From a virus (Duplodnaviria > Heunggongvirae > Uroviricota > Caudoviricetes): a DNA stretch of 27,985 nt. Positions 1 through 17,771 of this stretch are shown piece after piece. Numbering within the stretch: position 1 is the stretch's first letter; each line of letters opens with the position of its first letter. The notes beneath the pieces are model-generated. The model was not told where the DNA came from. It ran no database searches and saw only the letters and a program-made list of their open reading frames with translations. Where the stretch lies: the IMG/VR virus record IMGVR_UViG_2609459774_000007, positions 1 to 27,985 of that record; one strand, written 5' to 3'. The translations under genes were made by a program, and so were the position numbers.

Positions 1-483
1 ATGACGAAGAAAAAAGCACATAAACCTGGTTCAGCGACCATCGCGCTTAACAAGCGCGCCCGTCACGAATACTTTATCGAAGAAGAGTTCGAAGCGGGAC
101 TTGCCCTGCAAGGCTGGGAGGTTAAATCCCTGCGCGCAGGAAAAGCCAATATCAGCGACAGCTACGTCCTTCTGCGTGACGGAGAGGCATTTCTGTTTGG
201 CGCTAACATCACGCCAATGGCCGTGGCCTCCACGCATGTGGTGTGCGATCCTACCCGTACCCGCAAGTTACTTCTCAACCAACGCGAACTGGACTCATTG
301 TACGGTCGCGTCAATCGAGAAGGCTATACCGTAGTGGCGCTCTCCCTGTACTGGAAAAATGCCTGGTGCAAAGTGAAAATCGGCGTCGCCAAAGGTAAAA
401 AACAGCACGATAAACGTTCAGATATCAAAGAACGCGAATGGCAGGTGGATAAAGCACGTATCATGAAAAACGCCCACCGTTAA
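1..483 (+). CDS. smpB: SsrA-binding protein SmpB (trans-translation factor)
   Basis: 160-aa ORF matching enterobacterial SmpB over its full length as I recall it; lies immediately upstream of the tmRNA gene, the conserved smpB-ssrA arrangement. Confidence 0.95.
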
Positions 484-639
484 ACCTGCACTCCAATTAT
501 TGACCAGTTCCTCACCGCGCCTCCCTCTCCGGCGGCGCGAATGAACATCTTATTGGCTATCACATCCGACACAAATGTTGCCATCCCATTGCTTAATCGA
601 ATAAAAATCAGGCTACATGGGTGCTAAATCTTTAACGAT

Positions 640-697
640 AACGCCATTGAGGCTGGTCATGGCGCTCATAAATCTGGTATACTTACCTTTACACATT
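640..697 (+). promoter_or_regulatory. putative ssrA promoter region
   Basis: A -10-like hexamer TATACT at 678-683 lies about 15 nt upstream of the mature tmRNA 5' end (698), consistent with a short processed leader; the -35 element is not clearly identifiable. Confidence 0.4.
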
Positions 698-1060
698 GGG
701 GCTGATTCTGGATTCGACGGGATTTGCGAAACCCAAGGTGCATGCCGAGGGGCGGTTGGCCTCGTAAAAAGCCGCAAAAAATAGTCGCAAACGACGAAAA
801 CTACGCTTTAGCAGCTTAATAACCTGCTTAGAGCCCTCTCTCCCTAGCCTCCGCTCTTAGGACGGGGATCAAGAGAGGTCAAACCCAAAAGAGATCGCGT
901 GGAAGCCCTGCCTGGGGTTGAAGCGTTAAAACTTAATCAGGCTAGTTTGTTAGTGGCGTGTCCGTCCGCAGCTGGCAAGCGAATGTAAAGACTGACTAAG
1001 CATGTAGTACCGAGGATGTAGGAATTTCGGACGCGGGTTCAACTCCCGCCAGCTCCACCA
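698..1060 (+). ncRNA. ssrA: tmRNA (transfer-messenger RNA, SsrA)
   Basis: 363-nt sequence starting GGGGCUGAUUCUGGAUUCGACGGG and ending ...GGUUCAACUCCCGCCAGCUCCACCA; the tRNA-like acceptor/T-arm 3' end and overall length match E. coli tmRNA; directly downstream of smpB. Confidence 0.95.
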
Positions 1061-1064
1061 AATA
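1016..1064. repeat. attachment-site direct repeat, copy 1 (3' end of ssrA; attL of the P2-like element)
   Basis: 49 bp (ATGTAGGAATTTCGGACGCGGGTTCAACTCCCGCCAGCTCCACCAAATA) repeated exactly at 12713-12761; this copy is part of the intact tmRNA gene. Confidence 0.85.
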
Positions 1065-1068
1065 AATC

Positions 1069-1103
1069 AAGGGGTTACGTGAAAGCGTAGCCCCTTTTTC
1101 TTT
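1069..1103 (+). terminator. Rho-independent terminator immediately after ssrA (supplied by the inserted element)
   Basis: 11-bp stem AAGGGGTTACG/CGTAGCCCCTT (one G-U pair) with a 6-nt loop, followed by a TTTTTCTTT run, starting 9 nt after the tmRNA CCA end. Confidence 0.6.
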
Positions 1104-1183
1104 GGTAGTGGCGGCAAAATGGCGACAGACTATTGCGTCCATCTTGCCTATCGCCATCTTGAAATCATGCAAAGAGGTTTCAC

Positions 1184-1666
1184 ATGGAAGAACTTCACTT
1201 TGTTTACATCAATGCAAATGGTCGTATCGGTGTTCACTCAATACAGAGCATCAGTTATAGCGAAAATCATATACAGGGCATTTGTAAGAACACCGATCGA
1301 ATAAAAACCTTCCGAAAAGACCGCATTCTTAAACAGTACGATTCACCAGAACAAGCCATTCAGGAATGCGCGTCATTCCTCCCCGAAAACTACTCACATC
1401 TCACTAAGCAGTCTGGTCCGAAAAAAAATACATTCGATGTGTGTTTCACCGGATTTAAGAAAGCAGATAAAGAAAGATTGGTTGATAAGGCGAATGAACA
1501 AGGATTAACGGTAAGAGCCTCTGTAACCCAAAGCCTTCAGATGCTCTGTTGCGGTTACAATGCAGGCCCATCGAAAGTATCGGCAGCCAGGATGAAAGGC
1601 ACAATCATCATAGATGAGCCTGGCTTTATACATTTTCTTGAAACGGGTGAGATCCCAGATGAATAA
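1184..1666 (+). CDS. small BRCT-domain protein (uncharacterised N-terminal domain plus C-terminal BRCT fold); prophage-end cargo
   Basis: 160-aa ORF with a good RBS (AGAGG 6 nt upstream). The C-terminal ~85 aa show the BRCT pattern seen in NAD-dependent ligase C-termini (FDVCFTGF ... GLTV ... GTIIIDEPGFIHFL). Reads convergent to ogr. Confidence 0.6.
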   Translation: MEELHFVYINANGRIGVHSIQSISYSENHIQGICKNTDRIKTFRKDRILKQYDSPEQAIQECASFLPENYSHLTKQSGPKKNTFDVCFTGFKKADKERLVDKANEQGLTVRASVTQSLQMLCCGYNAGPSKVSAARMKGTIIIDEPGFIHFLETGEIPDE

Positions 1667-1668
1667 AA

Positions 1669-1684
1669 CCCTGCCGTAGCAGGT
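1669..1684. terminator. possible bidirectional terminator hairpin between the convergent BRCT gene and ogr
   Basis: Short stem CCTGC/GCAGG with a CGTA loop between the two stop codons, flanked by A-rich (left) and T/C-rich (right) sequence; the stem is short, so this is weak. Confidence 0.3.
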
Positions 1685-1692
1685 TCTCTTTC

Positions 1693-1911
1693 TCAAAAAT
1701 TCATATGCCCCTGACCACCTGGCAATGGATGTGGAGGAGCAGTAGCAATCAGTGCGGGTGTCACAATAAACCGGACCACTGTTTCATGGGTAACAAAAGT
1801 GCTCCCGCAGTTAATATTTTGGCACTGGCAGTAACGCTCTTTGGTGCTTTCAGTTACTTGAAAACTGCTCCTTGTGTGTGCCGCATGACCACATTTTGGA
1901 CAACTCATCAT
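1693..1911 (-). CDS. ogr: Ogr/Delta-family zinc-finger late-gene transcription activator
   Basis: The ORF contains CPKCGHAAHTRSS...KERYCQCQNINCGSTF...PHPLPGGQ, the Cys4 zinc-finger pattern of P2 Ogr. The 87-aa track ORF (to 1956) probably over-extends; the likely start is one of the two internal Met codons at residues 16-17 (about 1911/1908). Confidence 0.85.
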   Translation of the reverse strand: MMSCPKCGHAAHTRSSFQVTESTKERYCQCQNINCGSTFVTHETVVRFIVTPALIATAPPHPLPGGQGHMNF

Positions 1912-1979
1912 ATCCAGATCCCTACCTTTGCTATCAGAATCATTGTAATGATACACATAATATCAATATTGAGAACACT

Positions 1980-3080
1980 TTATTCCATTTCAAGATCATC
2001 AATCCTCACTTCAAGCTCCAGACTGGTCGTAAAACCGTTATCCGGGCTGACGGTATGCGTCAGAGTCGTAATGGTCCATTCCGCATCATCTATCGGCTGT
2101 TTAAAACCACTGACTTTCACTGGCATTTCCGTGTAGAGATCTGCCCGACCTTCCGCCAGTTGTAGCGAGAATGACGCAACGCCGCGTTGCAGGCGTTCCC
2201 ACTGCATTTTCGCTGCCCGTTCAGCGTTACTCCGATTAGCATAGGTGCGATTAAGTACCAGCACGTTTTCATCCGTACCCACCAGGTAATCGCCCTGCTT
2301 CGCTTCCGGCTCTTTCTTCTGCTTCTTAGTCCTGCGCTTACGCTTCACCGTAGTGCTTTCTTTCTTCGCGGGTTCGCGGGTATGCAACCAGCTGGCAATT
2401 ACGCCCGTGTAGGCTCCGCGATCTGCCAGGGTAAAGCGGTGGCTGTCGCCGTCCTTGCGTGTGATAGTGATCACTGGCAGAGGTTTACCGCTGGCGCTTT
2501 TGCCCTGTCCCTGCCGGATGAATAACAGATTGCCATTTTTCACCGACGCAATAGCACCGTACTGGCGCGCCAGCCGCATCAAAAAACTGCCGTCACTCTC
2601 ATTGGTCTGGTCTATATGATCCACGGGCTTATCCGACAGATCTTTACCCAATGCCATCTTCAGTTTGTGCCGCGCAGCTATTTCCTTCACCACTTCCCCA
2701 ACGGTGGTCTTGTGCCACGACTTTTCACGGCGGGTATTCAGCGTTTCCCGAAAATCAGCACTTCGCGCCCGGATAGTCAGTCGGTCCGGTGCGCCAGTGT
2801 GTTCAATCTCGTCCACCGTGAATGCCCCTTTCGGGAAAAGCGGCTGCCCCTTCCAGCCCAGCGCCAGCGTAATGACCGCACCACGGCGCGGCAGCACTAT
2901 TTTTCCATCGGCGTCGTCCAGCTCCAGATCAAGCTGGTCCGCTTCAAAGCCCCGGTTATCCGTCAGCGTCAGCCTCATCAGGCGGTTATCCAGCACAGTG
3001 GTGATATCCCTGCCCTCAATACTGATGCTGAATGCGGGAGTTTTGTTGCCTTTGTTAAGCAGTTCAGAGCTGAAATTCAC
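1980..3080 (-). CDS. D: P2 gpD-like tail protein (late control gene D family)
   Basis: 366-aa ORF placed immediately upstream of ogr on the same strand, the conserved D-ogr arrangement at the end of the P2/186 tail operon; the length and position fit gpD. Confidence 0.8.
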   Translation of the reverse strand: MNFSSELLNKGNKTPAFSISIEGRDITTVLDNRLMRLTLTDNRGFEADQLDLELDDADGKIVLPRRGAVITLALGWKGQPLFPKGAFTVDEIEHTGAPDRLTIRARSADFRETLNTRREKSWHKTTVGEVVKEIAARHKLKMALGKDLSDKPVDHIDQTNESDGSFLMRLARQYGAIASVKNGNLLFIRQGQGKSASGKPLPVITITRKDGDSHRFTLADRGAYTGVIASWLHTREPAKKESTTVKRKRRTKKQKKEPEAKQGDYLVGTDENVLVLNRTYANRSNAERAAKMQWERLQRGVASFSLQLAEGRADLYTEMPVKVSGFKQPIDDAEWTITTLTHTVSPDNGFTTSLELEVRIDDLEME

Positions 3081-3418
3081 GACATCAGCCCTCCCACCGT
3101 TTTACTGATATCGCTTAAGGCAGATGTTGCCGTTTCCTGCAGATTATTCAGTTGCGCACTGAGATCACCGAACATATCGGACAGGGATTCATCCACCCGT
3201 TTGAGCGACAGGGTGAACTCAATCCGGCGCGGCATACCGTCGCGGAAAAACTCCGTTTTAGTCTGATTCAGTCCCTCAATCACATACATGCCGTAAATCG
3301 TGCCGCTGCCTTCAATCAGAGGCCATGCTTTCCCCTGTTCTGCCATCTGCTCCAGTGCCAGCAACGACAGCCTGCCGCCTGTTATCTCCGGCATAAGAAC
3401 ACCGGAAAGCGTCAGCAT
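3077..3418 (-). pseudogene. U: P2 gpU-like tail protein, N-terminally truncated fragment
   Basis: 113-aa ORF (TLSGVLMPEITGGRLSLLALEQMAEQGKAW...) matches the C-terminal two-thirds of gpU as I recall it; overlaps the D start by 4 nt as in intact tail operons; the N-terminal part is missing. Confidence 0.65.
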
Positions 3419-3459
3419 GTCGTTTTCCGGTCCCAGAAACTGCGTGGACGGACGTCGGT

Positions 3460-4185
3460 TTACCCGACTGTTTGCCGCATGTCGCCAGCTGCGTTGATAC
3501 TGCAGTTGTCTTCCTGCCAGTAGATGGACAGGTTATCCAGACGGGTGATCAGCAGCGCATTCGGCGGGAAGAACGGCGCACGCACGGCCTGCAGGCCACC
3601 CATGCGTTTCTGGCTGATGATCATATCGGCAGCCAGTTTTTCACTGTTTTCCTGCTCTTTGTTGACCAGCGGGAAATACTTGTCAGACAACAGTTCACGA
3701 CCGCAAATCACCACCAGACCGTCATCGTCCTGGTAAACCACGTCGATAAGCTCATTGACGGCATCCATCACCACAGCGTCCAGGTTGGCATATTCGCCAC
3801 CTTTCCCGACTTTCACCGCACCCGGAGTGGTTTCACCGCCCGTGGTGGTGCTGCCCATGACGTGATCCGGTGCATCCTCACGGATTTTCTGCAGCCAGCC
3901 TTTGTTCACATCCTGCAGCAGCGGGTTTTCGCTACGGTTGGAGGTTTTCGCACGCTTCACGCCGTTAAAGCCGATCATGATGCGGTCCAGTGCCTGACGT
4001 TTCACGATGGCGTCACGGATGCGCACCTGGAAATCCTGAAACTTCGCCCACAGATCCAGCTTCGCGTAGGTCAGCACCGTGTCAAAGTTGGTCTGCTCGC
4101 ATTTATATTCCACATCGACCATCAGGGTCGGATCGGTGAAGTGATCGCCCTTGAGCCTGCGCTGGCAAAATACACCCGACGCGGA
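3460..4185 (-). pseudogene. N: P2 gpN-like major capsid protein, internal fragment (both ends missing)
   Basis: The 220-aa ORF (3460-4122) aligns with the middle of P2 gpN (YKCEQTNFD...LDLWAKFQDFQVRIRDAIVKRQ...GFNGVKRAKTS...VISQKRMGGL...LSIYW). The frame extends upstream to a stop at 4186-4188 without N-terminal homology, and the C-terminus diverges after SIYW. Confidence 0.75.
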
Positions 4186-4540
4186 TTAGACCTGGATACC
4201 TACTGGTTTGTGCAATACGGTATGACAACCCAGCCGTATCAGTTCACGAAAGGCAGCATTTTTCATCTGATGGAACCCACTGTAGAGCCAGCCCCTTCTC
4301 TTCATCACTACACTCACTAGCCGCTACAAGCTTAAGAAAAAAATCAATGCGCTGGAGCTTCAAAGACTCCAAAAAATAGTCCTGCATCTTTCCTCCTATA
4401 ACACCACACGCAATACTGTATGTATAACCACTGTTTATATTTACAGTATATAATAATCTTACTGATGTAAAACGTTTTTTTACATTCATCAGCCTGATAT
4501 GCCTGGTATTATTAAGAGCACGAATTGTTAACCCGCGTAA

Positions 4541-6955
4541 TTAATACAGGTTCCGCCACTGATCATCTTCCTGCAAACGCTGGTTCCGATAGAAGATACG
4601 CAGGCCTGCTCCTGACGGAATACTGCCTCCGCGAAGGAGTAAATCGATCTCTTTCTCGCTGCCATCAAATCCTCTGGACTTCAGCTCATACACGAGCTGC
4701 AGTCGCTGATGGTCTGTAATTCGCTGTTTGTAGTCTTTACGCCGTTTCGGTTTCACCAGGCGTAACCTTGCTGCCAGTTCCCGGCGCTCTTTTTTGCTCA
4801 TACTGTGCAGGTAATCGTGCAACTCCTTGTCATCCATGCTGGTAATGTCCGTTCTGGGGTCCCCATCAGCTGATTTATCTTTCTCCTGTTGGTTCAAATT
4901 TTCAGCAAGGGGACAGTTATTGCCACGAGTCCAAGGGGCGCAAGCGCCCTGGTCGGCTGCCGCCTCCTGAACGTCAACGGCCTTACGAACCATTTTCCAC
5001 TTCACTGCATGAGTGCAGATCTTGCCCTCTGCAATGGGTGACCAGATGCCATAAATACGAATGCCGTGATCGCCATAGGCGGTCGGCTCTTCGTTGATTT
5101 CATAAGCGGTTCTGATCAGGTGATATTTGCGGGGAACCAGTACGCCGCCCTGCTTCATGATGTAGGTGGCAAAACAACCAGCATCAGCAGCAGCCAGGAT
5201 TGCATCAAGGCGCGGGTTATCCAGTACCGGCGCACCTGCTTTTTTGTCCCCCTGTTGCCTTGCCGCCTGACCAGCCAGCAATCGCAGTTCACGGTAAGCC
5301 TGACGCCCCGGAATGCCAAAGAAGCGGAATTGCTGAACACGATGCAGAGACGCCCAGGCATTAACGTATTCAGCATTATCACGCAGGGATTTCCCCGTTT
5401 CCTTGCTGATCTCGCCAGCCAGACCACGCCCGTCAATGTTCTTACTGATGTATTTCGCGATGTAGCTTGTTGGCGTACCTTTGCGCGGGTTAATCAACTC
5501 AGACTTAAAGCGCGGCCCAGTGTTATTGCCCAGCTCCTCGCGGTCTTCACGGATGGCAAACTTACGCAGTAATACAGTGATGGCGCGGCGGTCTTTTTTG
5601 CGCATAAAACACAACAGGTGCCAGTGAACTGTACCGTCATGATGCGGCTCAGCCACCCGCACGCCATACCAGCGCAATCCGGCTTTGTGCATCGCCTTAC
5701 GAAATGCAGCAAACATGCCGACCAGGTAATCACTACTTTGTCTTACCGTCGCATTTGTCCAGGTTGGGTTGGGCCTGCCGTTATTTAGCGTGGAATGGAA
5801 ACGTGACGGACAGGTGATGGTGTAGAAAACGGCACAGTCACTGCGCATTTCAGCGATAAGCTCCAGACCTTTAACACAGGCCATCATCTCATTGCGGCGA
5901 TGCGCCGGGTTGCTGCTGCTGGCGTTTACCACATCTTCCATATCCAGCGTGTCACCGTCTTCGTTCACCAGTTCATGAGAACGGAAAAACTCCAGCGACT
6001 TACGGCGCTGCTCACGTTTATGCATCACGGCTTCATAGCTGACATAGGGAGATGCTTTTTTGCTGACCAGACAGACAGCACGCAACTGCTCTTCCCGCCA
6101 TTCGCAACGCATCTTCCATAATTTCCTATACCACCAGTCGGCGCACAGCATACGCGCCAGCGAACCCGGAATGAGTTCATAGGGCACGGGTTTACGGCGG
6201 TTTCTTTTCCGACGGAGTTGCTCAAACGCAGGCGGGATGACATCCAGTCGCAGGGTTTCTGCTGCCACCTTTTCCCATGTCTTGCGGATTTCTTCTGGCT
6301 TAACATCATCGGTGGCGTACAAATCACCACAAGCGGCATCAAGACACATGCTCATATGCGCAGCGACAAGAGTAGACAGGCGTTTCACCTGATCCTGACT
6401 CATTTCAGGCAGGATCAGCAGGCCGTCCAGCCCTTCATGGCTTGCCATAAAGCGAAAAGAAGTGGATAGCTGACTCTCGCGTACATGCTCCAGTCGTTCC
6501 AGACATGGCTTAATCGTCTCACGCAAATAGCGGGAATAAGCCTTTGGCCTGCCCAGGCTGCTGAAGTATTCGATACGTTGCATCAGCGGCTTGCTGATGT
6601 GGGTGGGCTGGGCGCTGACATCTGCCAGAATGACCATGTCTGGGTTAAAACGCTGCTGCTCATGCGCCAGCTTTGCCCGACTAATGAGCTTATCCTGCTC
6701 CATTTCGCGCTGGACAGGATCACGGGATTCATTAAAGAAATAACGCTCCCAGACCTGATCACTCAGTGCCTCACGGCGCAGCAGTTCCTGCTCGTTATCG
6801 GCAGCGTACAGAGTGATCAGGTTTGAAAGCGCAGAAACCGGCGCAACTTCCGCCGGGTCCAGATAAGGGTTAATGGCCTTTTTCGGGCTGTTCCATGAGA
6901 ACGATGCGGAAGCCTCGTTAAAGCCGCAGCAGTTGTTCATATCGGCATGGTTCAT
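4541..6955 (-). CDS. A: P2/186 gpA-like rolling-circle replication initiation endonuclease
   Basis: 804-aa ORF with the HxH metal-binding motif (VHWHLL) and the paired-tyrosine motif YIAKYISK typical of phage gpA initiators; located between the early regulatory genes and the structural gene remnants. Confidence 0.85.
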
Positions 6956-7917
6956 GCACGTACTCCGTACACGGCAGAACTATCCACGCCACGCGAATAA
7001 TCAAATCCCACCCAGCAGCGCGGCCCGGAAACAGCGATGATTTCTGTTGCAGATTTACTCTCACCAGCTGCTACGCCGATGCTGCGTTTTGCCTTGATGT
7101 AGTGGTGAGTAAAATTGCGATACAGCGAACGGATCAGGGATGTGTCACTGTTAGAAATAATGACCGGATGTCCTTCTGATGACCGATGTTCAAGAACGGA
7201 TGCCAGGTGATACTGGTCATCTTCAGTGAAGCCGTCAGTGTGATAACCGGAAAACGTGCCGTCATACGGCGGATCGCAATACACCACATCCCCCGCCTTC
7301 AACATCGCCAGCGTTTCATCAAAGCTGGCGCAGATAAACGTTGCCCGCTGGGCTTTTTCTGCAAATGCGCGAATTTCTTTTTCAGGAAAATACGGATTTT
7401 TATAATTACCGTAGGGAATGTTGAAATGCCCGCTCTTGTTATAGCGACATAAACCACGGTAACCGTGACGATTGAGATACAGGAAATATACCGCTTTCAT
7501 GAAATCAGTAATTTCAGTTGAGTAATTAAACTCCTGCCTTATGTTGTAATAAGCCACCTCCCTGTTTGCTTCCTCAAATAAAGCTCTGGCGCGAGATATA
7601 AACGATTCACAATCAGCAGCAACCTTTTTATAGAGGTTGATTAAATCAGGATTAATATCCGCAACAAGATAGCTGGGGTAGTGGATCTCCTGCGCTTCGT
7701 TCTGGATTGCTTCAGCGGTCACACGCAGCAGTTCTGCCGCTTCGACGTGGTTTAGCTGGCGGGATGTGATATGACACGCAAGACTATCAAGGCGGGCAGC
7801 CATTGCTTCAGCCCTTGCCCGGCGTTCTTCCAGACGAGCCTCTGTCAGTAAAATATTAAGCCCTGCGTCATCCGGTCCGATTTTAGTCGTGAGGGTTTCA
7901 ATATTACGCATAATCAA
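6952..7917 (-). CDS. Dam-like N6-adenine DNA methyltransferase (D12 class) with a non-canonical N-terminus
   Basis: Residues ~85-300 align with E. coli Dam from the ADIN(S/P)DLI(S/N)LY segment through FLYLNR.GY.GLCRYN, PYFPE and the catalytic DPPY motif (VVYCDPPY). The first ~85 aa are unrelated and the KWAGGK/FxGxG region is not seen. Confidence 0.8.
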
Positions 7918-7978
7918 TTCTCCTGAATTTAGATAAAGGGATGCCCGGCGGGTTTACGCCATTAATTTCATTAGCTGG

Positions 7979-8320
7979 TTAATTCGGCATGGTTAGCCGT
8001 CTGGGAAATAAGCTCACCACTGCACGAAAATGATTCATTGCTTTAATCAACTCCCGCTTTTCGTCAGTGGTCAGCTCATTAATGCTGATGCTATGACGTT
8101 CAGCTGGAATTTTTGCCATAAAGAATATGGCAGCCAGTGCCCGTTTATTTTGTTCGCTATTAATATCCCGTGGATCACGCATATCTTTAATAAACTGCTC
8201 AAGCTCTGACTCAATATTAAGACCAAAAACTTTCGCTCTTAATTCCGCAATGTGATTAAGTCCATTCAGGCGTTCACCGGGGCTTAATGGAACAGTCGCC
8301 GCAGCGCCTTCAATAGCCAT
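7979..8320 (-). CDS. hypothetical prophage early protein (position equivalent to 186 dhr)
   Basis: 113-aa ORF on the early-operon strand between the cII/fil region and dam; no recognisable motifs. Confidence 0.45.
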   Translation of the reverse strand: MAIEGAAATVPLSPGERLNGLNHIAELRAKVFGLNIESELEQFIKDMRDPRDINSEQNKRALAAIFFMAKIPAERHSISINELTTDEKRELIKAMNHFRAVVSLFPRRLTMPN

Positions 8321-8514
8321 TTGTTCCCCCGTTTTTTCGTTGATAGTTCTGCCAACAATTCATCTTGCGAACGGCACGGATGCCAGCGTTTACCATCCTC
8401 ACCCATGATCCAGCCGTGACCGTAGTGCATTGCCGGACTTTGTTTTACCAGCAGCGATGCAAATGATGGTTCTTTCGTCAGCATAAGCACCTCACAGCAA
8501 ACCGAATGAAGCAC
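8284..8514 (-). CDS. hypothetical small early protein, possibly Fil-like
   Basis: 76-aa ORF directly downstream of cII in the position occupied by fil in phage 186; overlaps both neighbours, as is common in compact phage operons. Assignment is by position only. Confidence 0.4.
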   Translation of the reverse strand: MLHSVCCEVLMLTKEPSFASLLVKQSPAMHYGHGWIMGEDGKRWHPCRSQDELLAELSTKKRGNKWLLKALRRLFH

Positions 8515-9001
8515 CGAGGCCAGTCACGGTATCAACTGCACTCGCCATCGCAGGATTAGCCTGTAAACGGGCCTGCAATGAAACAGCCGCCAGCGCCATC
8601 AGTCGTGTAACAGAGTTAATGCTGCTGATCGCATCACGACGGCCTGCACTGGTTTTTACATCGCCAGAAACCGCCCCTGCCGCAACACGCCCGATCTCTG
8701 CGGTTGCACTCATGACGTAATGTGGCAGTTTCTCTTTTGCTACCTCATTAATCGGTACACATGGCAGGCAGTGAATCTGTGCCAGAAAACCATCTATCAG
8801 CGTTGAGTCTTCTGTCAGATCGGTAAGCAGCCAGATTTCTGGCGCATTGAGCTGATGCGGTTGATCTGGGTTGAGTTTGTTTCGCAGTGTCTGAACATTC
8901 ATTCCTGCACGTTCTGCCAGCTTCGCCATATTGTGATGTAGTGCAAAAGCTCTACAGGCTTCATCAAAATGCGGGTGTTTGGAAATCTTATAATCAAACA
9001 T
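8492..9001 (-). CDS. cII: 186-type CII-like transcriptional activator
   Basis: 169-aa ORF, the length of phage 186 CII, with an N-terminal HTH-like segment; sits in the apl-cII-fil order downstream of the divergent cI/apl switch. Confidence 0.7.
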   Translation of the reverse strand: MFDYKISKHPHFDEACRAFALHHNMAKLAERAGMNVQTLRNKLNPDQPHQLNAPEIWLLTDLTEDSTLIDGFLAQIHCLPCVPINEVAKEKLPHYVMSATAEIGRVAAGAVSGDVKTSAGRRDAISSINSVTRLMALAAVSLQARLQANPAMASAVDTVTGLGASFGLL

Positions 9002-9033
9002 GCTACCCCCTTAGAAAGTTCTCATAATTGAAC

Positions 9034-9276
9034 TTACTTACCAACAATGACGCGGAAGTTGGAATGACCGAGGGATTCACGGACCTGATCGGTTTTGTAC
9101 ATTAAATAACGCAGGCTTACGCGGCCTTTGTTTTTTTCTTTCTTGACCATGTATTTAGCAAGCTGACCATGGTGAATTTTTTGATACACGGAGCCGCGGG
9201 AGATACCTTCCCATTCCGCGAACTCAGCAGGCGTTGCCATCTCTTTTGGTACACGAATTGAAATATCAGTACTCAT
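9034..9276 (-). CDS. Apl/Cox-family small HTH protein (putative excisionase / lytic-promoter regulator)
   Basis: 80-aa ORF transcribed divergently from the repressor gene, first gene of the early lytic operon; HTH-like segment ATPAEFAEWEGISRGSVYQKIHHGQL. Confidence 0.55.
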   Translation of the reverse strand: MSTDISIRVPKEMATPAEFAEWEGISRGSVYQKIHHGQLAKYMVKKEKNKGRVSLRYLMYKTDQVRESLGHSNFRVIVGK

Positions 9277-9392
9277 AGTGCAGTATCTCTTAGTTTGGTT
9301 TCGTTTTATCTTGTTTTATGTGGTTTGGTTTTGCTTTTCAAACCATAAATGGATATTAGGATCACTTTTTATATACGTCAAGAGGTTTGATT
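9277..9392. promoter_or_regulatory. divergent lysis-lysogeny switch region (apl/cI intergenic; candidate operators and promoters)
   Basis: 116-bp AT-rich intergenic region between divergent apl and cI, with repeated GTTTGGTTT / TGGTTTGGTTTTG motifs and an inverted AAACCA copy. Confidence 0.5.
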
Positions 9393-10025
9393 ATGAGTTT
9401 AATAAAGGCGGGAAATGATAGTGGTGGGCGCGATGCAATTAACAGGCTTATTAAGGCTTACAACTTCAGCTCACGACAGCAGCTCTGCGAACATCTGGAA
9501 GTATCAAAAAGCACTATGGCTAACAGATACTTAAGGGATAGCTTTCCTGCCGAATGGGTAATTCAATGTGCCCTTGAAACAGGAGCTTCCCTTCTATGGC
9601 TGGCTACTGGTCAAGGAGATATGTATGCGTGTGAGAACGAAGAAACAAATCTCAAAAATGAACCTCCTGTCACTGTAAGACCACTTTCTAAGATCGTTGC
9701 TCCTAGCATCAAACGTGTTGAACTGAAGAACGGCGAACTGCAGCCAAGTGATGAAATTCTTCTTGATAGCAGCCTGCTCGATGGTGACTCATCCAACGCT
9801 TTATTTGTTAAAACAGCTAATAATAGCTTTGTAGTGGATACGTCCGTTAAACAAGTCAGTAATGGCTTCTGGTTAGTCGATATGGACGGAGTTAAAAGCA
9901 TCGTTAAAATTGCGCGCATACCCGGAAACAAAATAGTAGTTAACCAAGATGACACTTCATTTGAATGTTCTGTAGATGATGTGGAAGTCGTAGGACGTGC
10001 AGTCAAAGTAATCAAGAACCTCTAA
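9393..10025 (+). CDS. cI: 186-type CI-like immunity repressor
   Basis: About 210 aa with an N-terminal HTH (VSKSTMANRYLRD...) and a C-terminal oligomerisation-like region; immediately upstream of int as in 186-type prophages. The track ORF starts at a TTG (9387); ATG at 9393 has AGAGG 7 nt upstream. Confidence 0.75.
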   Translation: MSLIKAGNDSGGRDAINRLIKAYNFSSRQQLCEHLEVSKSTMANRYLRDSFPAEWVIQCALETGASLLWLATGQGDMYACENEETNLKNEPPVTVRPLSKIVAPSIKRVELKNGELQPSDEILLDSSLLDGDSSNALFVKTANNSFVVDTSVKQVSNGFWLVDMDGVKSIVKIARIPGNKIVVNQDDTSFECSVDDVEVVGRAVKVIKNL

Positions 10026-10028
10026 CTT

Positions 10029-11048
10029 ATGACCATCAGAAAACAGCCGAACGGAAAATGGTTGTGTGAGTGCTATCCCAATGGACGCAATGGTAAGCGC
10101 GTGCGTAAGCAATTTGCTACCAAAGGCGAAGCCATTGCGTTTGAAAGCTTCACAATGGAAGAAGTGAACAAAAAACCGTGGTTAGGAGAAAAGGATGATC
10201 GGCGACACCTATCAGAATTAATTGAGCTTTGGTATTCCCTGTATGGTCAGACACTCGCAGACCCCAAGCGCCTCATGGCGAAACTTAGAATTATCTGTAA
10301 TGGTCTAGGCGACCCCATCGCCTCAGAACTGACAGCCGGTGACTTTACGAAATACCGCGAAGCACGGTTAAAAGGTGAAGTACGAAATGAAGATGGGACG
10401 CTTATGTCGCCCGTTAAGCCCCGCACGGTAAACCTCGAACAGCGCAATCTATCATCGGTGTTCGGTACATTAAAAAAACTAGGACACTGGTCAGCACCAA
10501 ACCCGCTGGCAGGACTTCCAACCTTCAAAATTGCCGAAGGTGAGCTGGCTTTTCTTTCCATGGACGAAATCAAGCGCCTGTTGGCTGCATGTGCTGAATC
10601 TCAAAGCCCCAGCTTATTAATGATTGCCAAAATATGTTTGGCTACCGGCGCACGTTGGAGCGAAGCCGAAAACCTGCATGGCCACCAAATATCGAAATAC
10701 CGAATTACTTATATAAAGACAAAAGGTAAGAAAAACAGAACAGTACCGATATCACAGGAACTATATGACGAACTCCCCAAGCACAGAGGGAAGTTATTCA
10801 CGCCATGCAGAAAAGCCTTTGAGCGTGCAGTAAAGCGGGCCGGTATTGAACTTCCGGAGGGGCAATGCACCCATGTATTACGTCATACATTCGCCAGCCA
10901 TTTTATGATGAACGGCGGAAACATACTGGTACTACGCGATATTCTGGGCCATGTGGATATAAAAATGACGATGATTTATGCCCACTTTTCCCCTGACCAC
11001 CTAGAAGATGCGGTAACAAAAAACCCACTGTTTAATTTAAAATGGTAA
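10029..11048 (+). CDS. int: P2-type tyrosine integrase
   Basis: 339-aa ORF with clear similarity to P2 Int (PxGRNGKRxRxxF...; catalytic-region HxLRHTFASHFMMNGG...MxYAHF); transcribed toward the attR repeat. Confidence 0.9.
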   Translation: MTIRKQPNGKWLCECYPNGRNGKRVRKQFATKGEAIAFESFTMEEVNKKPWLGEKDDRRHLSELIELWYSLYGQTLADPKRLMAKLRIICNGLGDPIASELTAGDFTKYREARLKGEVRNEDGTLMSPVKPRTVNLEQRNLSSVFGTLKKLGHWSAPNPLAGLPTFKIAEGELAFLSMDEIKRLLAACAESQSPSLLMIAKICLATGARWSEAENLHGHQISKYRITYIKTKGKKNRTVPISQELYDELPKHRGKLFTPCRKAFERAVKRAGIELPEGQCTHVLRHTFASHFMMNGGNILVLRDILGHVDIKMTMIYAHFSPDHLEDAVTKNPLFNLKW

Positions 11049-12583
11049 ATTTAACGATGAAAAGATTGAAATCAGTTTCCGATGCAGTTATCCAACTCAG
11101 ATTAAATGCGGTAAAAGCAAGTATTCAAAGCGTCAATCCAAACGAGTTTATAACACATTGCCTTGATTATAACCTCCAGAAATTTAACAATCAGCTTGAA
11201 ATGTTACAACACCTACCATGGGTTGTGAATTTATGCATTAAATGGTCCGCCAGTGCGCTGGGTAAAAAACGGAAATTTAAACATATTGACAGACCTGGTG
11301 CTGTCAGGTTGCTACAACGAGCATATGAGGAACTAAGTATAATTCCAACTGGTCTGGAAAATATAGACAAAGGGATTAACTTTTTCCTTAGAAATACGTT
11401 ATATCAACAAGGTATTTATCAAAGATTAGATGCTTTAAATACAATTAGCAGACAAGTTTTCTTGTTTTCTTCCTTAGATGACAACAATAGAATCAAGCGT
11501 AGATTCAAAGAACTTACTGATGTTGATATAAACGATTTTCTAAAACTATCATTTGTGTTAGTATCACTCGTTACCTTACAAGCACCAGTAAAGAAAATAA
11601 CAATAGATTCTTTCGCAGCTCTTTACTCCGTAATACCTAAAGATACAATCGAGAAATTTCTGAATACTATATCTATCCCTTACGAAGAACTAGCTCGGTT
11701 TTGCTGTACAAAAGATAATGAGACACCTTTAGTAGAATATTATGCTCCATCGCCTTTCTTAGAAAAACCTTTCATCAAATTCGAAGGAAATTATCACCAA
11801 ATACATACGCAGCTAACTTCGACCAGTATACAAACCTTTATATATGATTTGCTTCGCAGAGATGATGCAGAATCGTTCATGGACAAATTTGGGCGAGTTT
11901 TCGAAAATGCAGTCAACCAGCTATTAGATGAAAGTGGAATTGCTTATATTGCTGAAGGAAATTTAAAAGAATATCTACCTCAAGAGAATAAAGTTGTAGA
12001 TTTTCTACTACCTCATGATGAAGCTAACATTTTCATCGATGCTAAAGGTGTTGAGATAAACCAAAAGGGAATGGTTACACTACGACCAGGGGATATTTCT
12101 GCCAATATAAAAAGCTCCGTATTAAAAACTATAGAACAAGCACACTCAGTAAATAGAGAGCTAATTAAAAAAGGTAACCAAAATTTTTCTTTTAAAAAAG
12201 AGTCCTACATTTTATGTCTTACTTATAAAAATTTATTCCTTGGAAATGGTACATTTCTAAATAAATCCTATGCTAACATCGAAATGAAAAAAATCCGAGA
12301 TAGGCATTCAGAAGAATATCAAATACCTGATGAGAACATTTTCTGCATATCATTTGAGGAATTCGAGTATCTGCTATCTTCTTGCAAGGAATACTCAAAA
12401 CCTGTACATGAGGTACTGCGAGAAGCTGTAGTTAGAAACCAAACACCATCAAGTGCAGTTTTCCTTTTTGCACATCATATCCGTGACTCATTCCCCAAAA
12501 TACGTTCATCTGAGATCGTCAGGCTCGCAGGCTTGAGCGAGATCAACCATATCGTTGAACGATTAGAGCAAGCTGGCTCTTGA
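11042..12583 (+). CDS. uncharacterised 513-aa cargo protein with a putative C-terminal PD-(D/E)xK nuclease core
   Basis: Long AT-rich ORF between int and attR, overlapping the int stop (alternative start ATG 11057). The C-terminal half has E...VVDFLLP...IFIDAKG, fitting the E/D/(D/E)xK arrangement of PD-(D/E)xK nucleases; the N-terminal ~270 aa have no recognised motifs. Confidence 0.6.
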   Translation: MVNLTMKRLKSVSDAVIQLRLNAVKASIQSVNPNEFITHCLDYNLQKFNNQLEMLQHLPWVVNLCIKWSASALGKKRKFKHIDRPGAVRLLQRAYEELSIIPTGLENIDKGINFFLRNTLYQQGIYQRLDALNTISRQVFLFSSLDDNNRIKRRFKELTDVDINDFLKLSFVLVSLVTLQAPVKKITIDSFAALYSVIPKDTIEKFLNTISIPYEELARFCCTKDNETPLVEYYAPSPFLEKPFIKFEGNYHQIHTQLTSTSIQTFIYDLLRRDDAESFMDKFGRVFENAVNQLLDESGIAYIAEGNLKEYLPQENKVVDFLLPHDEANIFIDAKGVEINQKGMVTLRPGDISANIKSSVLKTIEQAHSVNRELIKKGNQNFSFKKESYILCLTYKNLFLGNGTFLNKSYANIEMKKIRDRHSEEYQIPDENIFCISFEEFEYLLSSCKEYSKPVHEVLREAVVRNQTPSSAVFLFAHHIRDSFPKIRSSEIVRLAGLSEINHIVERLEQAGS

Positions 12584-12712
12584 TTGCACAATTGCAAATT
12601 GGCGACAAATTGGCGGCAGAGCATTAAAAATGCGTAAAATAAACAAACACCAAATAATACTAATATGCTGTTTTAAAACATAAATATATGTTTTTATCAT
12701 AATAATAATGGT

Positions 12713-12761
12713 ATGTAGGAATTTCGGACGCGGGTTCAACTCCCGCCAGCTCCACCAAATA
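12713..12761. repeat. attachment-site direct repeat, copy 2 (partial ssrA 3' end; attR of the P2-like element and attL-type junction of the P4-like island)
   Basis: Exact 49-bp repeat of 1016-1064; the sequence upstream of it is unrelated to ssrA, so this is only a partial ssrA copy. Confidence 0.85.
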
Positions 12762-12791
12762 TTGATGTACTGAAGTTCAGTAAAGTCTACT

Positions 12792-12826
12792 AAGCCCGCA
12801 CAGCACAAGCTCTGCGGGCTTTTTTA
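12792..12826 (+). terminator. Rho-independent terminator downstream of the second att copy
   Basis: GC-rich stem GCCCGCA/TGCGGGC with a ~12-nt loop, followed by TTTTTT. Confidence 0.55.
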
Positions 12827-12923
12827 CGTCTATTGTAGTCTAGTGAGAATTGCTGAGAACTACGAGTTATGGCACCCTGAATGGGACCCACGAAGATGGG
12901 TCCTAAAATCGAGGGTCCCAAAC

Positions 12924-14153
12924 ATGGCCAAAATCGCTAAGAAGCTCACTGACACTGAAATCAAAAGCACCAAACCTGCCGAAAAAGAGGTTAACCTTTT
13001 TGACGGCGATGGTTTGCTGTTGCGAATCGCTCCCCTGGCGAAGGGAGGGAAGAAAAATTGGTATTTCAGATATGCAGTGCCTGTGACCAAAAAGCGAACT
13101 AAGGTGAGCTTAGGAACCTATCCTCACCTTACACTTGCGAAGGCACGAGCTTTACGTGATGAATACTTGTCGTTGCTTACAAATGGTATAGACCCCCAAG
13201 TTCATAACAACCAAAAAGCCAATGCACTGAAAGATGCCACGGAACATACATTTCAAGCAGTAGCCAAGAAGTGGCTTGATGAGAAAGTCAAAACGTCAGG
13301 CATCTCCCAAGATCATGCTAACGACATCTGGCGAAGCCTAGAGAGAAATATCTTTTCCACATTGGGTGATACCCCAATTAAGGAGATTCGCCCTAAAATG
13401 CTTAAACAGCATTTAGAACCCATAGAAAAACGAGGTGTCCTTGAAACACTTCGCCGCATCATATCCCGCCTGAATGAAATTTTCCGCTATGCAGCAACAG
13501 AAGAACTCATAGAATTCAACCCGGCAGACAACCTGGGGCAACGGTTCAGCAAGCCAAAAAAACAGAATATGCCAGCATTACCCCCTTCCGAACTCCCTCG
13601 CTTCTTGGTTGCTCTAAACAATGCTTCTATCCGTTTGGAAACAAGGCTACTGATTGAGTGGCAACTTCTCACATGGGTTCGCCCAGGTGAAGCTGTTCGC
13701 ACAAGATGGTCAGATATTGATATTGAAACTGGCATGTGGAACATCCCGGCGGAGTTTATGAAAATGAAGAAGCCTCACAAAGTTCCACTGAGCAAAGAAG
13801 CTTTGCGAGTTTTGGATTTAATGAAAGTCATCAGCGGGCATAGAGAGTGGGTGTTCCCCAGTATCAAAGCTCCACTCAATCACATGCATGAACAAACAGC
13901 TAATGCGGCCATAATCCGTATGGGTTTCGGAGGTGAGCTTGTAGCTCACGGTATGCGATCCATTGCTAGAACGGCTGCTGAGGAGTCTGGCAAGTTTAGG
14001 ACTGATGTCTTAGAAGCCGCCCTTGCCCACTCGAAGAAAGATGAAATAATTGCAGCCTACAATCGTGCAGAGTATCTCACTGAACGGGTGGTTCTCATGC
14101 AATGGTGGAGTGACTATGTTTCGTCTCAAAAATGCAAAGTTATTGCCGCATAA
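12924..14153 (+). CDS. P4/IntA-family tyrosine integrase
   Basis: Strong similarity to E. coli CP4-57 IntA as I recall it (LTDTEIK..KP, DIWRSLER, LETLRR, PLS.EAL.(V/I)L, HG.RSIA.TA, LAH, AYNR.(E/D)YL..R...MQWW.D). The track ORF starts at 12843; the homology-supported start is ATG 12924 (MAKIAKKLTDTEIK). Confidence 0.9.
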   Translation: MAKIAKKLTDTEIKSTKPAEKEVNLFDGDGLLLRIAPLAKGGKKNWYFRYAVPVTKKRTKVSLGTYPHLTLAKARALRDEYLSLLTNGIDPQVHNNQKANALKDATEHTFQAVAKKWLDEKVKTSGISQDHANDIWRSLERNIFSTLGDTPIKEIRPKMLKQHLEPIEKRGVLETLRRIISRLNEIFRYAATEELIEFNPADNLGQRFSKPKKQNMPALPPSELPRFLVALNNASIRLETRLLIEWQLLTWVRPGEAVRTRWSDIDIETGMWNIPAEFMKMKKPHKVPLSKEALRVLDLMKVISGHREWVFPSIKAPLNHMHEQTANAAIIRMGFGGELVAHGMRSIARTAAEESGKFRTDVLEAALAHSKKDEIIAAYNRAEYLTERVVLMQWWSDYVSSQKCKVIAA

Positions 14154-14215
14154 CTCTCCCATGATGGATTAACTATCTTGATTTAGTTAAAGAATTAATA
14201 ATCACACCATTAACC

Positions 14216-14265
14216 TATGTGGACTAAGCATAGCCATTTACAAATGGGGACATTGAGTCCACATA
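14216..14265. repeat. 50-bp nested inverted repeat (candidate recombinase or ParB binding/crossover site)
   Basis: Outer 10-bp arms TATGTGGACT / AGTCCACATA flank a 30-bp spacer that itself contains CCATTT-AC-AAATGG (6-bp arms around a non-palindromic AC centre); between intA and the serine recombinase gene. Confidence 0.5.
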
Positions 14266-14435
14266 ACGAAAGCTGTCGGTCATATCAGCTAAATAATTCA
14301 CATCTCTTCTCGATTATCATACACCTCGAAGATCTACCAAATTCGCTCTAATCAATGATAAAACAGTTGAATTCGGTTGAAATTTGATCAATTTTATCCA
14401 CTACATTGTATTGAATCATCCATGAGGTTTCGTGC

Positions 14436-15992
14436 ATGGCTAGCGAAAATGACAAAAATCATAGAGTTAGGGTCGCGCAGTACTTGAGGATGTCTACCGA
14501 CCATCAGCAATATTCTTTACATAATCAGTCCGAATATATCAAAGATTATGCTGAAAAGAACAATATGGAAATCGCTTATACCTACGATGATGCAGGTAAG
14601 AGCGGAGTCAGTATCGTAGGCAGGCATTCTTTGCAGCAGTTACTTAGCGATGTAGAACAAAAGAAAATAGATATACAGGCTGTATTATTTTATGATGTGA
14701 GCCGTTTTGGTCGTTTTCAAAATAGTGATGAAGCGGCATATTATTCCTTTCTATTTGAGAGAAATGGTGTAGATCTTATATATTGTTCCGAACCTATACC
14801 CACTAAAGATTTCCCTTTAGAGTCCTCTGTTATACTGAATATAAAAAGATCTAGTGCTGCATATCACAGCAGGAATCTATCTGAAAAGGTATTTATAGGG
14901 CAAGTAAATTTAATAAAGCTTGGTTATCATCAAGGCGGTATGGCTGGTTATGGGCTGAGACGTCTTTTAGTAGACGAAAATGGCATAGCTAAAGAAATAT
15001 TGAGTTTCCGCAAAAGAAAGAGTATTCAAACAGATAGGGTAATATTAATTCCGGGACCAAAAAATGAAATAAAAATTGTAAATAGAATATATGATCTCTT
15101 TATAGATAATAACGTCCCAGAATTCATTATTGCTGAGAGATTAAATGAACAGAACATACCTGCAGAAAATGGAACATTATGGACTCGTGCAAAAATACAT
15201 CAAATTTTGACAAATGAAAAATATATTGGAAACAACATATATAACAAAACCTCATCTAAATTAAAAAGTAGGCTTGTAAAAAACCCCAAACATGAATGGG
15301 TTAGATGTGACAAGGCATATAAACCTATTATTTCAAAGAAAAAATACAATAAAGCTCAAGAAATAATTCAGCTCCGATCCATTCATTTGACTAATGAAGA
15401 TCTATTAGAAAAACTAAAACAAAAATTAGAATCTAATGGAAAACTATCAGGCTTTATCATTGATGAAGATGATACAGGCCCTTCATCTTCTGTTTATAGA
15501 ACCCGATTTGGTGGTCTTTTAAGAGCATATACTTTGATTGGTTATAAGCCAGAACATGATTACAGCTATCTCAAAATAAATGAAGCACTAAGATCATTTT
15601 ACTCAGAGATAATTGAGGATTTTAAGGGTGAAATTTTAAAAAGTAACTGTCATATAGACGAGTATAAATATGCCCCAATGCTTTACATCAATGATGAGTT
15701 TTTAATTTCCGTCCTTGTTACTAAATGCATACATATGAAATCAGGTAAACTTAGATGGAAAGTCCGGTTTGATAACTCACAGAAAGCAGACATAACAATT
15801 GTTATACGAATGAATTCACAAAATATTTCACCTCTTGATTTTTATATCATACCAAAGATTGAAAACGAATATAATAAAATGTGCATGACGGAAACAAACA
15901 ACATTCGATTAGATCTCTATAGATTTGATAATCTTGATAAACTTCTACAAATTATTACTCGCATGAAAGTGAGGGAACTATATGCTGCCTGA
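14436..15992 (+). CDS. large serine recombinase (resolvase/invertase catalytic domain plus recombinase domain)
   Basis: 518-aa AT-rich ORF; the N-terminus has the serine-recombinase catalytic pattern (YLRMSTDHQQYSLHNQ ... YDDAGKSG ... DVSRFGR); RBS GAGG upstream. Confidence 0.85.
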   Translation: MASENDKNHRVRVAQYLRMSTDHQQYSLHNQSEYIKDYAEKNNMEIAYTYDDAGKSGVSIVGRHSLQQLLSDVEQKKIDIQAVLFYDVSRFGRFQNSDEAAYYSFLFERNGVDLIYCSEPIPTKDFPLESSVILNIKRSSAAYHSRNLSEKVFIGQVNLIKLGYHQGGMAGYGLRRLLVDENGIAKEILSFRKRKSIQTDRVILIPGPKNEIKIVNRIYDLFIDNNVPEFIIAERLNEQNIPAENGTLWTRAKIHQILTNEKYIGNNIYNKTSSKLKSRLVKNPKHEWVRCDKAYKPIISKKKYNKAQEIIQLRSIHLTNEDLLEKLKQKLESNGKLSGFIIDEDDTGPSSSVYRTRFGGLLRAYTLIGYKPEHDYSYLKINEALRSFYSEIIEDFKGEILKSNCHIDEYKYAPMLYINDEFLISVLVTKCIHMKSGKLRWKVRFDNSQKADITIVIRMNSQNISPLDFYIIPKIENEYNKMCMTETNNIRLDLYRFDNLDKLLQIITRMKVRELYAA

Positions 15993-16878
15993 AAAAAATG
16001 AATTCCCAATAATTCAAATTGAGATTGCAAAAATAAAATTTCTTAACCCACGAACAAGAAATAAGGTAGTGCATGAAGAAATAAAGGAAAGCATAAAAAA
16101 AAGAGGATTAAGCAAGCCAATAAGCGTAAGAGCTATTGATGAAGGCGATTTCAAATATGCTTTAATTTGTGGTCAAGGGAGAATAGAGGCTCTCGTTGCA
16201 TTAGGTGAAACTATTATTCCAGCAATTATAAGAGATGTATCAGAAGAAGATGCTTACGTTATGAGTTTAGTTGAAAACATTGCAAGGAGAAGGCCACGTT
16301 CTAATGAGTTATTACAGGTGATTAAAGACATGAAAATCAGAGGACTTTCAGACTCCGAAATAAGTGAGATTACTGGATATTCATCGAACTGGGTGAGCAG
16401 TATTAATATGCTACTTGATAAGGGAGAGCATAAACTTCTCTCAGCAGTCGAACGGGGTAATTTGCCTCTGTATCTCGCAGTGCAATTTGCAAGATGTGAA
16501 ACTGAGGAAGCACAAGATATTCTTACCGAAGCATATGATAAAAAATTAATAAAAAGTCGGGACATTATAAAGATAAAACACATTCTAAATCAAAGAACAG
16601 TTGGGAATAAAGGTGCAAAAGCAGCCGGATTTTATTATCACAAACCATCAAAAAGGATGACTGCAGAGGAGTTGATTGAGCTTTATGAAAATAGTATCGC
16701 TGAACATAAATCTGTTTATAACAACTCAAAATTCATAAAAACCAACCTACTAATAGTAAATGAGATTTTTAACATCATAATGATGAATAAAAGCTTTCAA
16801 CATATACTTGAACAAGAGAATCTTTCAGAACTACCATCTCAGATATTAACCCCAGTAAACAAAGAGGTATTAAAATGA
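15982..16878 (+). CDS. ParB/Srx-fold protein with HTH (ParB-like, paralogue 1)
   Basis: 298 aa; N-terminal ParB-like region (IQIEIAKIKFLNPR ... ISVRAIDEGDFKYALICGQGRIEAL ... IPAIIRDVSEEDAYVMSLVENIARR) followed by an HTH-like segment; start overlaps the recombinase stop. Confidence 0.7.
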   Translation: MLPEKNEFPIIQIEIAKIKFLNPRTRNKVVHEEIKESIKKRGLSKPISVRAIDEGDFKYALICGQGRIEALVALGETIIPAIIRDVSEEDAYVMSLVENIARRRPRSNELLQVIKDMKIRGLSDSEISEITGYSSNWVSSINMLLDKGEHKLLSAVERGNLPLYLAVQFARCETEEAQDILTEAYDKKLIKSRDIIKIKHILNQRTVGNKGAKAAGFYYHKPSKRMTAEELIELYENSIAEHKSVYNNSKFIKTNLLIVNEIFNIIMMNKSFQHILEQENLSELPSQILTPVNKEVLK

Positions 16879-17771
16879 TTCAGATACGTTTTGGCGATAA
16901 TTTTATTTACCTGGAAACTAATAAGTTAATTCCATCTAAGGAATTATTAGAAAACGTAAAGCGAAGCCATAAATATCATCAAATAGTTACCTCTATCGAA
17001 AGCTTAGGTATTATTGAACCAATAATAGTATTCTATGACAAAGATAAAGATGTCACTAAGATACTTGATGGCCATTTAAGGGTTGAGGCTTTAAAAGACT
17101 TAGGTATAGAAAAAGCTCCATGTATACTTTCGAGCATAGATGATGCTTTCACTCCTAACAAACAAGTGAATCATATAAATGTAGTTGAAGAACATAGAAT
17201 GATAATTAAGTCTCTGGCAAAAGTATCAATTGAAAAACTTAGTGCTGCTTTGGGCATATCTGTTGATGCCATAAAAGATAAAGCGAATGTGATGAACGGC
17301 ATAGATCCAAGTGTAATTGCGAAACTTTCTGATAAACCTATACCTAAGGCTACATTTGACGTTTTGAGGAAAATGAAGCCAATTCGCCAAATTGAAGCAG
17401 TCGGTACAATGATTAATTTTGATAATTATAGTAAAAAATTTGCAATGAGCATCTTGGATGCAACACCGGCATCGATGATAGTAAATAAAGGGAAAAACAC
17501 TCCCTATAAAAAGGACATAAAAAAAACCATACTTCGTCTGGAACAAGAAATGGCAACAACTTCGGAAGAAACGAAAAAGCTTCAAACCGAGTATGGTTCA
17601 GATATGTTGAAATTCGTTATAATCCAGTCATATATTAATAAATTACTTGGCAATTCTAAAGTTCTTCATTGGTTCTTAGAAAACGAGGTTGATTATCTTA
17701 ATGAGTTAAAAAGAATTTCTAGAATAAATTCTTTGGATGATAAGACTCTTACTGAAAACAGCAAGTCATAG
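16875..17771 (+). CDS. ParB/Srx-fold protein with HTH (ParB-like, paralogue 2)
   Basis: 298 aa; ParB-like N-terminal region with a DGHxR-type motif (ILDGHLRVEAL) and an HTH-like segment (LSAALGISVDAIKD); start overlaps the stop of the preceding ParB-like gene by 4 nt. Confidence 0.65.
   Translation: MIQIRFGDNFIYLETNKLIPSKELLENVKRSHKYHQIVTSIESLGIIEPIIVFYDKDKDVTKILDGHLRVEALKDLGIEKAPCILSSIDDAFTPNKQVNHINVVEEHRMIIKSLAKVSIEKLSAALGISVDAIKDKANVMNGIDPSVIAKLSDKPIPKATFDVLRKMKPIRQIEAVGTMINFDNYSKKFAMSILDATPASMIVNKGKNTPYKKDIKKTILRLEQEMATTSEETKKLQTEYGSDMLKFVIIQSYINKLLGNSKVLHWFLENEVDYLNELKRISRINSLDDKTLTENSKS

Follow-up and report, generated by a model that had tools for sequence, protein, structure and literature searches.

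In P2-like phages of the Fels-2/186 type, the early operon carries a run of genes whose intact order is DUF5347, DUF2732 (77 amino acids), a TraR/DksA zinc-finger gene (75 amino acids), dam (285 amino acids) and gene A. Salmonella phage RE-2010 and Escherichia phage Cartapus each have DUF2732, the DksA-like gene and dam as three distinct annotated genes, and in the operon of both phages the stop and start codons of successive genes overlap. A different arrangement is found in the IMG/VR virus record IMGVR_UViG_2609459774_000007, of which positions 1 to 27,985 were analysed (this whole stretch of 27,985 nucleotides is referred to below as the window). On its minus strand a single open reading frame (ORF) joins DUF2732 to the C-terminal part of Dam; because a 355-bp deletion is in frame, DUF2732 reads straight into Dam residue 44. 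With a probability of roughly 0.93, this ORF is a chimeric, almost certainly inactive gene remnant, left when a defective prophage lost 355 bp from its early (replication) operon in one deletion. The undeleted version, treated here as the parent, is carried by Escherichia coli Ecol_AZ147 (hereafter AZ147). The features of the fused locus are the following.

6952..7911, minus strand: chimeric ORF of 319 amino acids, DUF2732 (1-77) plus Dam (44-285 of the parent) (Pfam, AZ147 comparison)
7681..7911, minus strand: DUF2732 part, codons 1-77, a complete domain whose own TAA stop is deleted (PF10809, AZ147 identity)
7679..7682, minus strand: deletion junction 7681/7680, in frame (alignment columns 311-665; blastn blocks overlap by 2 bp)
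6952..7680, minus strand: Dam part, parental codons 44-285 plus stop, keeping motif II (ADIN), the target-recognition region and motif IV (PF02086)
7264..7275, minus strand: catalytic motif IV, DPPY, residues 213-216, intact (sequence, E. coli Dam alignment)
7920..7924, minus strand: Shine-Dalgarno sequence AGGAG, formerly of the DUF2732 gene (sequence; invariant in RE-2010 and Cartapus)
4541..6955, minus strand: replication gene A (gpA), 804 amino acids (gene call, Pfam, relatives)
7979..8320, minus strand: DUF5347 gene, 113 amino acids, upstream in the early operon (gene call, Pfam, relatives)

The frame is open without interruption from 6952 to 7917, as an earlier sequence-only reading of the window had noted; that reading started the protein at the TTG at 7917, but the ATG at 7911 is the likelier start and yields 319 residues followed by a TGA stop, the TTG adding two residues. 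The ATG is preferred because the AGGAG lies 8 nt upstream of it and only 2 nt from the TTG, and because the 77-residue DUF2732 homologues of RE-2010 and Cartapus are annotated from ATG. The distance of 61 bp given for the gap to the upstream gene is right when counted from the TTG and becomes 67 bp from the ATG. At the other end, the ATG of gpA (6955-6953) overlaps the TGA of the fusion ORF (ATGA), the same overlap as in intact phages.

Two Pfam domains divide the protein between them. PF10809 (DUF2732) matches residues 1-76 over profile positions 1-75 of 75 (E = 9.8e-28), and PF02086 (MethyltransfD12) matches residues 75-278 (E = 1.8e-60) over profile positions 40-253 of 253 only. In a phmmer search against PDB, residues 78-297 are colinear with residues 47-270 of E. 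coli Dam (E = 1.4e-58). The Dam-like C-terminal part with its DPPY motif, recognised in the sequence-only reading, is thus confirmed by Pfam and phmmer as the last 242 residues, of D12 class. The PADLOC orphan-MTase and MTase_II profile matches all begin at position 45 or later, and more generally every methyltransferase profile match to the fusion is colinear and begins at profile position 40-72 or later. The mentions of DUF2732 met in a literature search are incidental and carry no functional information.

Comparison with AZ147 accounts for both halves. The fusion consists of AZ147 DUF2732 residues 1-77, identical, followed by AZ147 Dam residues 44-285 with one K-to-E change (1 of 242 residues). 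On either side of the gap the nucleotide sequence of AZ147 matches the query at 100% identity, and blastn over longer flanks gives one mismatch in 1,755 bp and three in 5,080 bp. What the window lacks is a block of 355 bp comprising the TAA stop of DUF2732, the whole TraR/DksA gene and dam codons 1-43 (MSTILKWAGNKTAIMSELKKHLPAGPRLVEPFAGSCAVMMETE). The claim that the N-terminal region of Dam had been replaced by an unrelated segment is therefore sound insofar as the first 77 residues are unrelated to Dam; the segment is, however, the whole neighbouring DUF2732 gene and brings no new cofactor element. The short upstream gap, which had been taken to make a missing piece unlikely, was a misleading guide, the piece having been deleted inside the operon rather than left upstream.

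The parental breakpoints read GGAGATCCACTA / ATGG and GGAGACGGAGTA / CCCC (the slash marks the break), sharing the TA at their ends as well as 8 of 12 positions. They sit in an imperfect 12-mer repeat (GGAGA-N5-TA), and the TA at 7679-7680 is a 2-bp microhomology common to both. The deletion probably occurred by slippage or illegitimate recombination at this TA microhomology within the imperfect repeat. Further chimeric ORFs are present in the protein database, in which the same prophage dam is joined to gpD, to a tail-fibre collar gene or to gpA (protein hits P0010, P0011, P0049, P0072, P0069 and P0073, some of them named Dam-family methyltransferases in NCBI). Deletion chimeras seem to be common in this P2-like prophage family.

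The three-gene arrangement prevails among relatives. A megablast search with window positions 6800-8400 gives 45 phage records in which at least 80% of the query is covered, and in the phage records among the full-length matches listed the query lies in two pieces across about 1,955 bp, against 1,601 bp in the window. When the window is aligned with RE-2010 and Cartapus, it is interrupted by a single clean 355-column gap, flanked on either side by sequence of about 95% identity. The region is present in 1,231 of 5,426 complete E. coli genomes; among the 40 E. coli matches listed, the query halves are 355 bp apart, or 654 bp, in all 40. The 654-bp spacing is attributable to an extra DUF3850 gene, which a subset of E. 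coli prophages (e.g. H32, H45) carries between DUF2732/TraR and dam, the span being 1,125 bp as against 826 bp. The presence of this gene in some prophages marks the DUF2732-dam interval as a variable spot of the early operon.

The fused allele itself is rare in reference collections. Neither the 5,426 complete E. coli genomes nor 50,697 phage records contain the junction 44-mer (the plasmid collection was not searched), and the junction 38-mer and 24-mer are absent from GTDB species-representative genomes, a result that speaks for representative genomes only. Two contigs contain the 24-mer, one from IMG/VR and one from an ENA metagenome, and both are at least 99.96% identical to the window. 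At the protein level, the exact 319-residue sequence is present in NCBI (e.g. EFE4631606.1) under the name "Dam family site-specific DNA-(adenine-N6)-methyltransferase". The assembly index lists it in 47 blocks, and it was present in each of the 24 contigs read from them, which originate from E. coli isolates and human-gut metagenomes. The same early-region neighbours recur in 10 of the 10 places listed, and a defective remnant is found in every contig that reaches far enough. Across the 12 other assemblies compared the junction recurs every time in nearly identical form, and the isolate contig JNPW01000028.1 (GCA_000703925.1) is 100% identical to window positions 1-17911; GCA_019373645.1 is a further carrier strain. 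Between carriers, which had been found by exact protein look-up, the fusion gene shows 0-3 synonymous differences. The fusion was found in no functional phage among those searched. These observations are consistent with a single recent event that has been inherited within E. coli.

The rarity of the allele is the one point in favour of regarding the junction as an artefact of sequencing or assembly, or the fused form as ancestral and the three-gene form as the product of an insertion. An artefact is rejected because the same junction recurs in independent isolate and metagenome assemblies. An ancestral fusion is rejected on the content of the 355 bp, which in relatives encode a conserved Dam N-terminus (homologous to residues 7-46 of E. 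coli Dam) and a conserved TraR/DksA gene, and which are present across the E. coli genomes carrying the region and in Klebsiella and Salmonella phages. Both possibilities are thus extremely improbable, and a deletion is the preferred origin of the fused gene.

In class-I AdoMet (S-adenosylmethionine)-dependent methyltransferases, the first and central beta-strand of the Rossmann-like sheet carries motif I, whose glycine loop contacts the cofactor, and motif X folds across the latter. In the intact homologue motif X is KWAGNK, at residue 6 (6-11), and motif I is EPFAGSC, at residue 30; both lie within the dam codons 1-43 that were lost. A regular-expression scan for KWAGxK and E-x-F-x-G-x-[GSAC] gave zero matches anywhere in the 319 residues of the fusion, which upholds the observation that the KWAGGK and FxGxG (motif I) elements of Dam have no counterpart and shows no canonical motif I elsewhere in the protein. 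Motif II is present as ADIN (D85), and the residues matching Y119, L122, R124, P134 and Y138 of E. coli Dam are conserved, the position of N120 being occupied by R. As a D12 methyltransferase, the fusion is accordingly deficient in motif I, motif X and profile coverage, and complete in motif II, motif IV and, apart from the position of N120, the recognition residues. Because motif I and motif X both fall within the deleted codons, the product is very likely unable to bind AdoMet or methylate DNA, judging from what is general to class-I methyltransferases. Of the outcomes envisaged in the sequence-only reading (an inactive or a regulatory Dam derivative, or a methylase with a permuted or alternative cofactor-binding element), the inactive derivative is therefore the one that is supported. 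Lost with the N-terminus is, in addition, the lysine that corresponds to K9 of E. coli Dam; in that enzyme a K9A mutation permits methylation of non-GATC sites (PMC6567924).

The last of these outcomes, an active methyltransferase whose new N-terminus supplies an alternative or permuted AdoMet-binding element, would be in keeping with the intact DPPY and ADIN motifs. The N-terminus is, however, a complete and independently occurring DUF2732 domain, all-helical and devoid of a glycine loop, and no motif-I-like sequence is found elsewhere in the fusion. Nor is there a glycine-loop motif C-terminal to DPPY, as permuted DNA methyltransferases would have. Since the remaining motifs stand in the normal alpha-class order and differ from the AZ147 parent at 1 of 242 residues, nothing has been permuted. 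An active enzyme of this kind is hardly credible.

Structure prediction, which the sequence-only reading had proposed as a check on whether an AdoMet pocket forms, was carried out with AlphaFold2 on the fusion and on an intact Dam control with the same shallow alignment, and only the comparison between the two models was used. The fusion model has a mean predicted local distance difference test score (pLDDT) of 52 and a predicted template modelling score (pTM) of 0.43, with the catalytic half mostly at 30-50 in blocks of 10 residues. The intact Dam model has a mean pLDDT of 68 and a pTM of 0.71, with the catalytic half mostly at 70-87 in such blocks, and contains beta-1 at residues 28-30. In the fusion the N-terminus is predicted to form three helices, in line with the helical character earlier ascribed to it, and no strand takes the place of beta-1. 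The comparison agrees with a damaged fold.

Three points weigh against an inactive remnant. The reading frame has been kept and the remaining Dam sequence is undamaged, which leaves room for a retained function; the allele is found in many assemblies, including two structurally different remnants, and is therefore not strongly deleterious; and AlphaFold confidence is no measure of stability, both models being of only modest quality. The first of these is nonetheless expected of a recent event, the fusion being about 99.9% identical to the intact allele, and one deletion in three is in frame by chance.

The same observations bear on the idea that the fusion has acquired a new, non-catalytic role, as a GATC-binding or regulatory factor or as a DUF2732 protein altered by its Dam tail, and has been kept for it. 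Besides being in frame, the fusion still has a ribosome-binding site and overlaps gene A at the stop/start codons, positions aligned with DNA-contact residues of E. coli Dam are conserved as described above, and many strains, their remnants being of two architectures, still carry the allele. Methylation-independent repression has been proposed for E. coli Dam (PMC4417163), and this too counts in favour of such a role. Against it, no sign of selection is seen, the carriers being nearly identical and too similar for a test; the central beta-strand is gone, and for the catalytic half model confidence falls far below that of the intact control; the prophage is dead and its operon is controlled by an intact CI repressor; and no other architecture combining DUF2732 with D12 occurs among the 120 best homologues. 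A new non-catalytic role is for these reasons very unlikely. In its most specific form, a domesticated and catalytically dead chimera would recognise GATC DNA, or tether DUF2732 to DNA, and act on the host or on incoming P2-like phages, which is a highly improbable proposition. If it were true, the chimera could affect, for example, replication control or superinfection, and domestication would explain the persistence of the allele in a widespread commensal E. coli lineage.

Under the preferred explanation, that of an inactive deletion remnant, translation of the fusion ORF would start from the ribosome-binding site of DUF2732, and the ORF would be transcribed only once the CI-repressed early operon is switched on, the CI repressor gene being intact. 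The product would then either misfold and be degraded or act as DUF2732 with an inert tail.

The element that surrounds the fusion is itself degraded, and its landmarks are given below.

698-1060, plus strand: ssrA, transfer-messenger RNA (tmRNA) gene (tmRNA call)
1016..1064, plus strand: attachment site (att) copy 1, at the 3' end of ssrA, a 49-bp perfect direct repeat
3077-3418, minus strand: truncated gpU gene, profile positions 45-120 of 120 (profile match)
3460-4122, minus strand: major capsid gene fragment, profile positions 90-289 of 327 (profile match)
10029-11048: integrase gene, P2-type
12713..12761, plus strand: att copy 2, the perfect 49-bp repeat; blastn homology to AZ147 reaches 12758 here

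The att repeats delimit an element of 11.7 kb, compared with 33-35 kb in intact relatives. It retains genes for integrase, CI, a cox-like protein, cII, fil, DUF5347, the fusion ORF, gpA, gpD and ogr; apart from the capsid and gpU fragments, all virion genes are gone. The element is a defective P2-like (Peduoviridae, Fels-2/186-type) prophage remnant at ssrA in E. coli.

Decay of this prophage has continued beyond the fusion. Most of the sibling carriers examined (e.g. contig L006, 13638-17225) have about 3.6 kb extra at the position corresponding to window ~4274-4277, encoding DinI, a 778-residue AAA_13 ATPase and a portal fragment, and the window lineage thus underwent a second, later deletion at ~4275. 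One carrier (L010) has the short form seen in the window, and certain metagenome carriers have a split AAA_13 gene. The closely matching remnant in AZ147 (contig L005, 9321-11326) has DUF2732, TraR and dam intact, and its gene A ends after about 346 codons, abutting gpD; here the same prophage has decayed along a route of its own. The prophage family decays by successive internal deletions. In a further metagenome carrier (L008), the fusion gene is identical and mismatches cluster in gpA (4283-5393) and in DUF5347/fil/cII (7975-8681), which suggests patchy recombination with related prophages.

Several other genes lie within or next to the prophage. Between the P2-type integrase and the att repeat, a 513-residue ORF (11042-12583, plus strand) has no Pfam or PADLOC match; its AZ147 orthologue is named 'GapS1 family protein' in RefSeq, and the ORF may be anti-phage cargo of the prophage. 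A 160-residue ORF (1184-1666, plus strand) between ssrA and ogr, inside the prophage end, has no Pfam match and a weak PADLOC match (E = 2e-7) to the C-terminus of the candidate defence protein PDC-S48. Directly beyond att copy 2 a second island occupies 12843-25403, with the following genes.

12843-14153: IntA-like tyrosine integrase
14436-15992: serine recombinase
15982-17771: two ParB/RepB-like genes
19368-20915, 20912-22105 and 22164-25403: hsdM, hsdS and hsdR, respectively, of a complete type I restriction-modification system

The fusion calls for caution in annotation, since the name under which it stands in NCBI is that of an active Dam methyltransferase and the protein is without the cofactor-binding motif. 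Because that motif is absent, surveys of methylomes or defence systems that count methyltransferases by domain would miscount it. The locus also provides a clean, datable series of steps in prophage decay, from intact dam (AZ147) through the 355-bp fusion to the fusion with a further 3.6-kb deletion (window).

Among known systems, the closest are the Dam proteins of Fels-2/186-type phages and prophages (YP_007003503.1 of RE-2010, YP_010664013.1 of Cartapus and WP_078232680.1 of AZ147), to which fusion residues 78-319 correspond from residue 44 onwards. Like their genes, the fusion precedes gene A with an ATGA stop/start overlap; unlike them, it is without residues 1-43 and is translated as a continuation of DUF2732. 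With E. coli Dam (PDB 2G1P, 4GOL and other entries) it shares DPPY, motif II and recognition residues, whereas residues 1-46 of that enzyme, including K9 and the motif I loop, have no counterpart. To the stand-alone DUF2732 protein (WP_032434758.1, AZ147) it is 100% identical over residues 1-77, differing in the loss of the stop codon and the resulting C-terminal extension of 242 residues. The sister chimeras of Dam with gpD, collar or gpA have other partners, and here the deletion strikes the 5' rather than the 3' end of dam. As in other deletion chimeras of cryptic prophages, an internal deletion with microhomology has occurred in a decaying prophage. The fusion is thus a further example of the known deletion chimeras of cryptic prophages, its sequence already public and annotated as an active methyltransferase.

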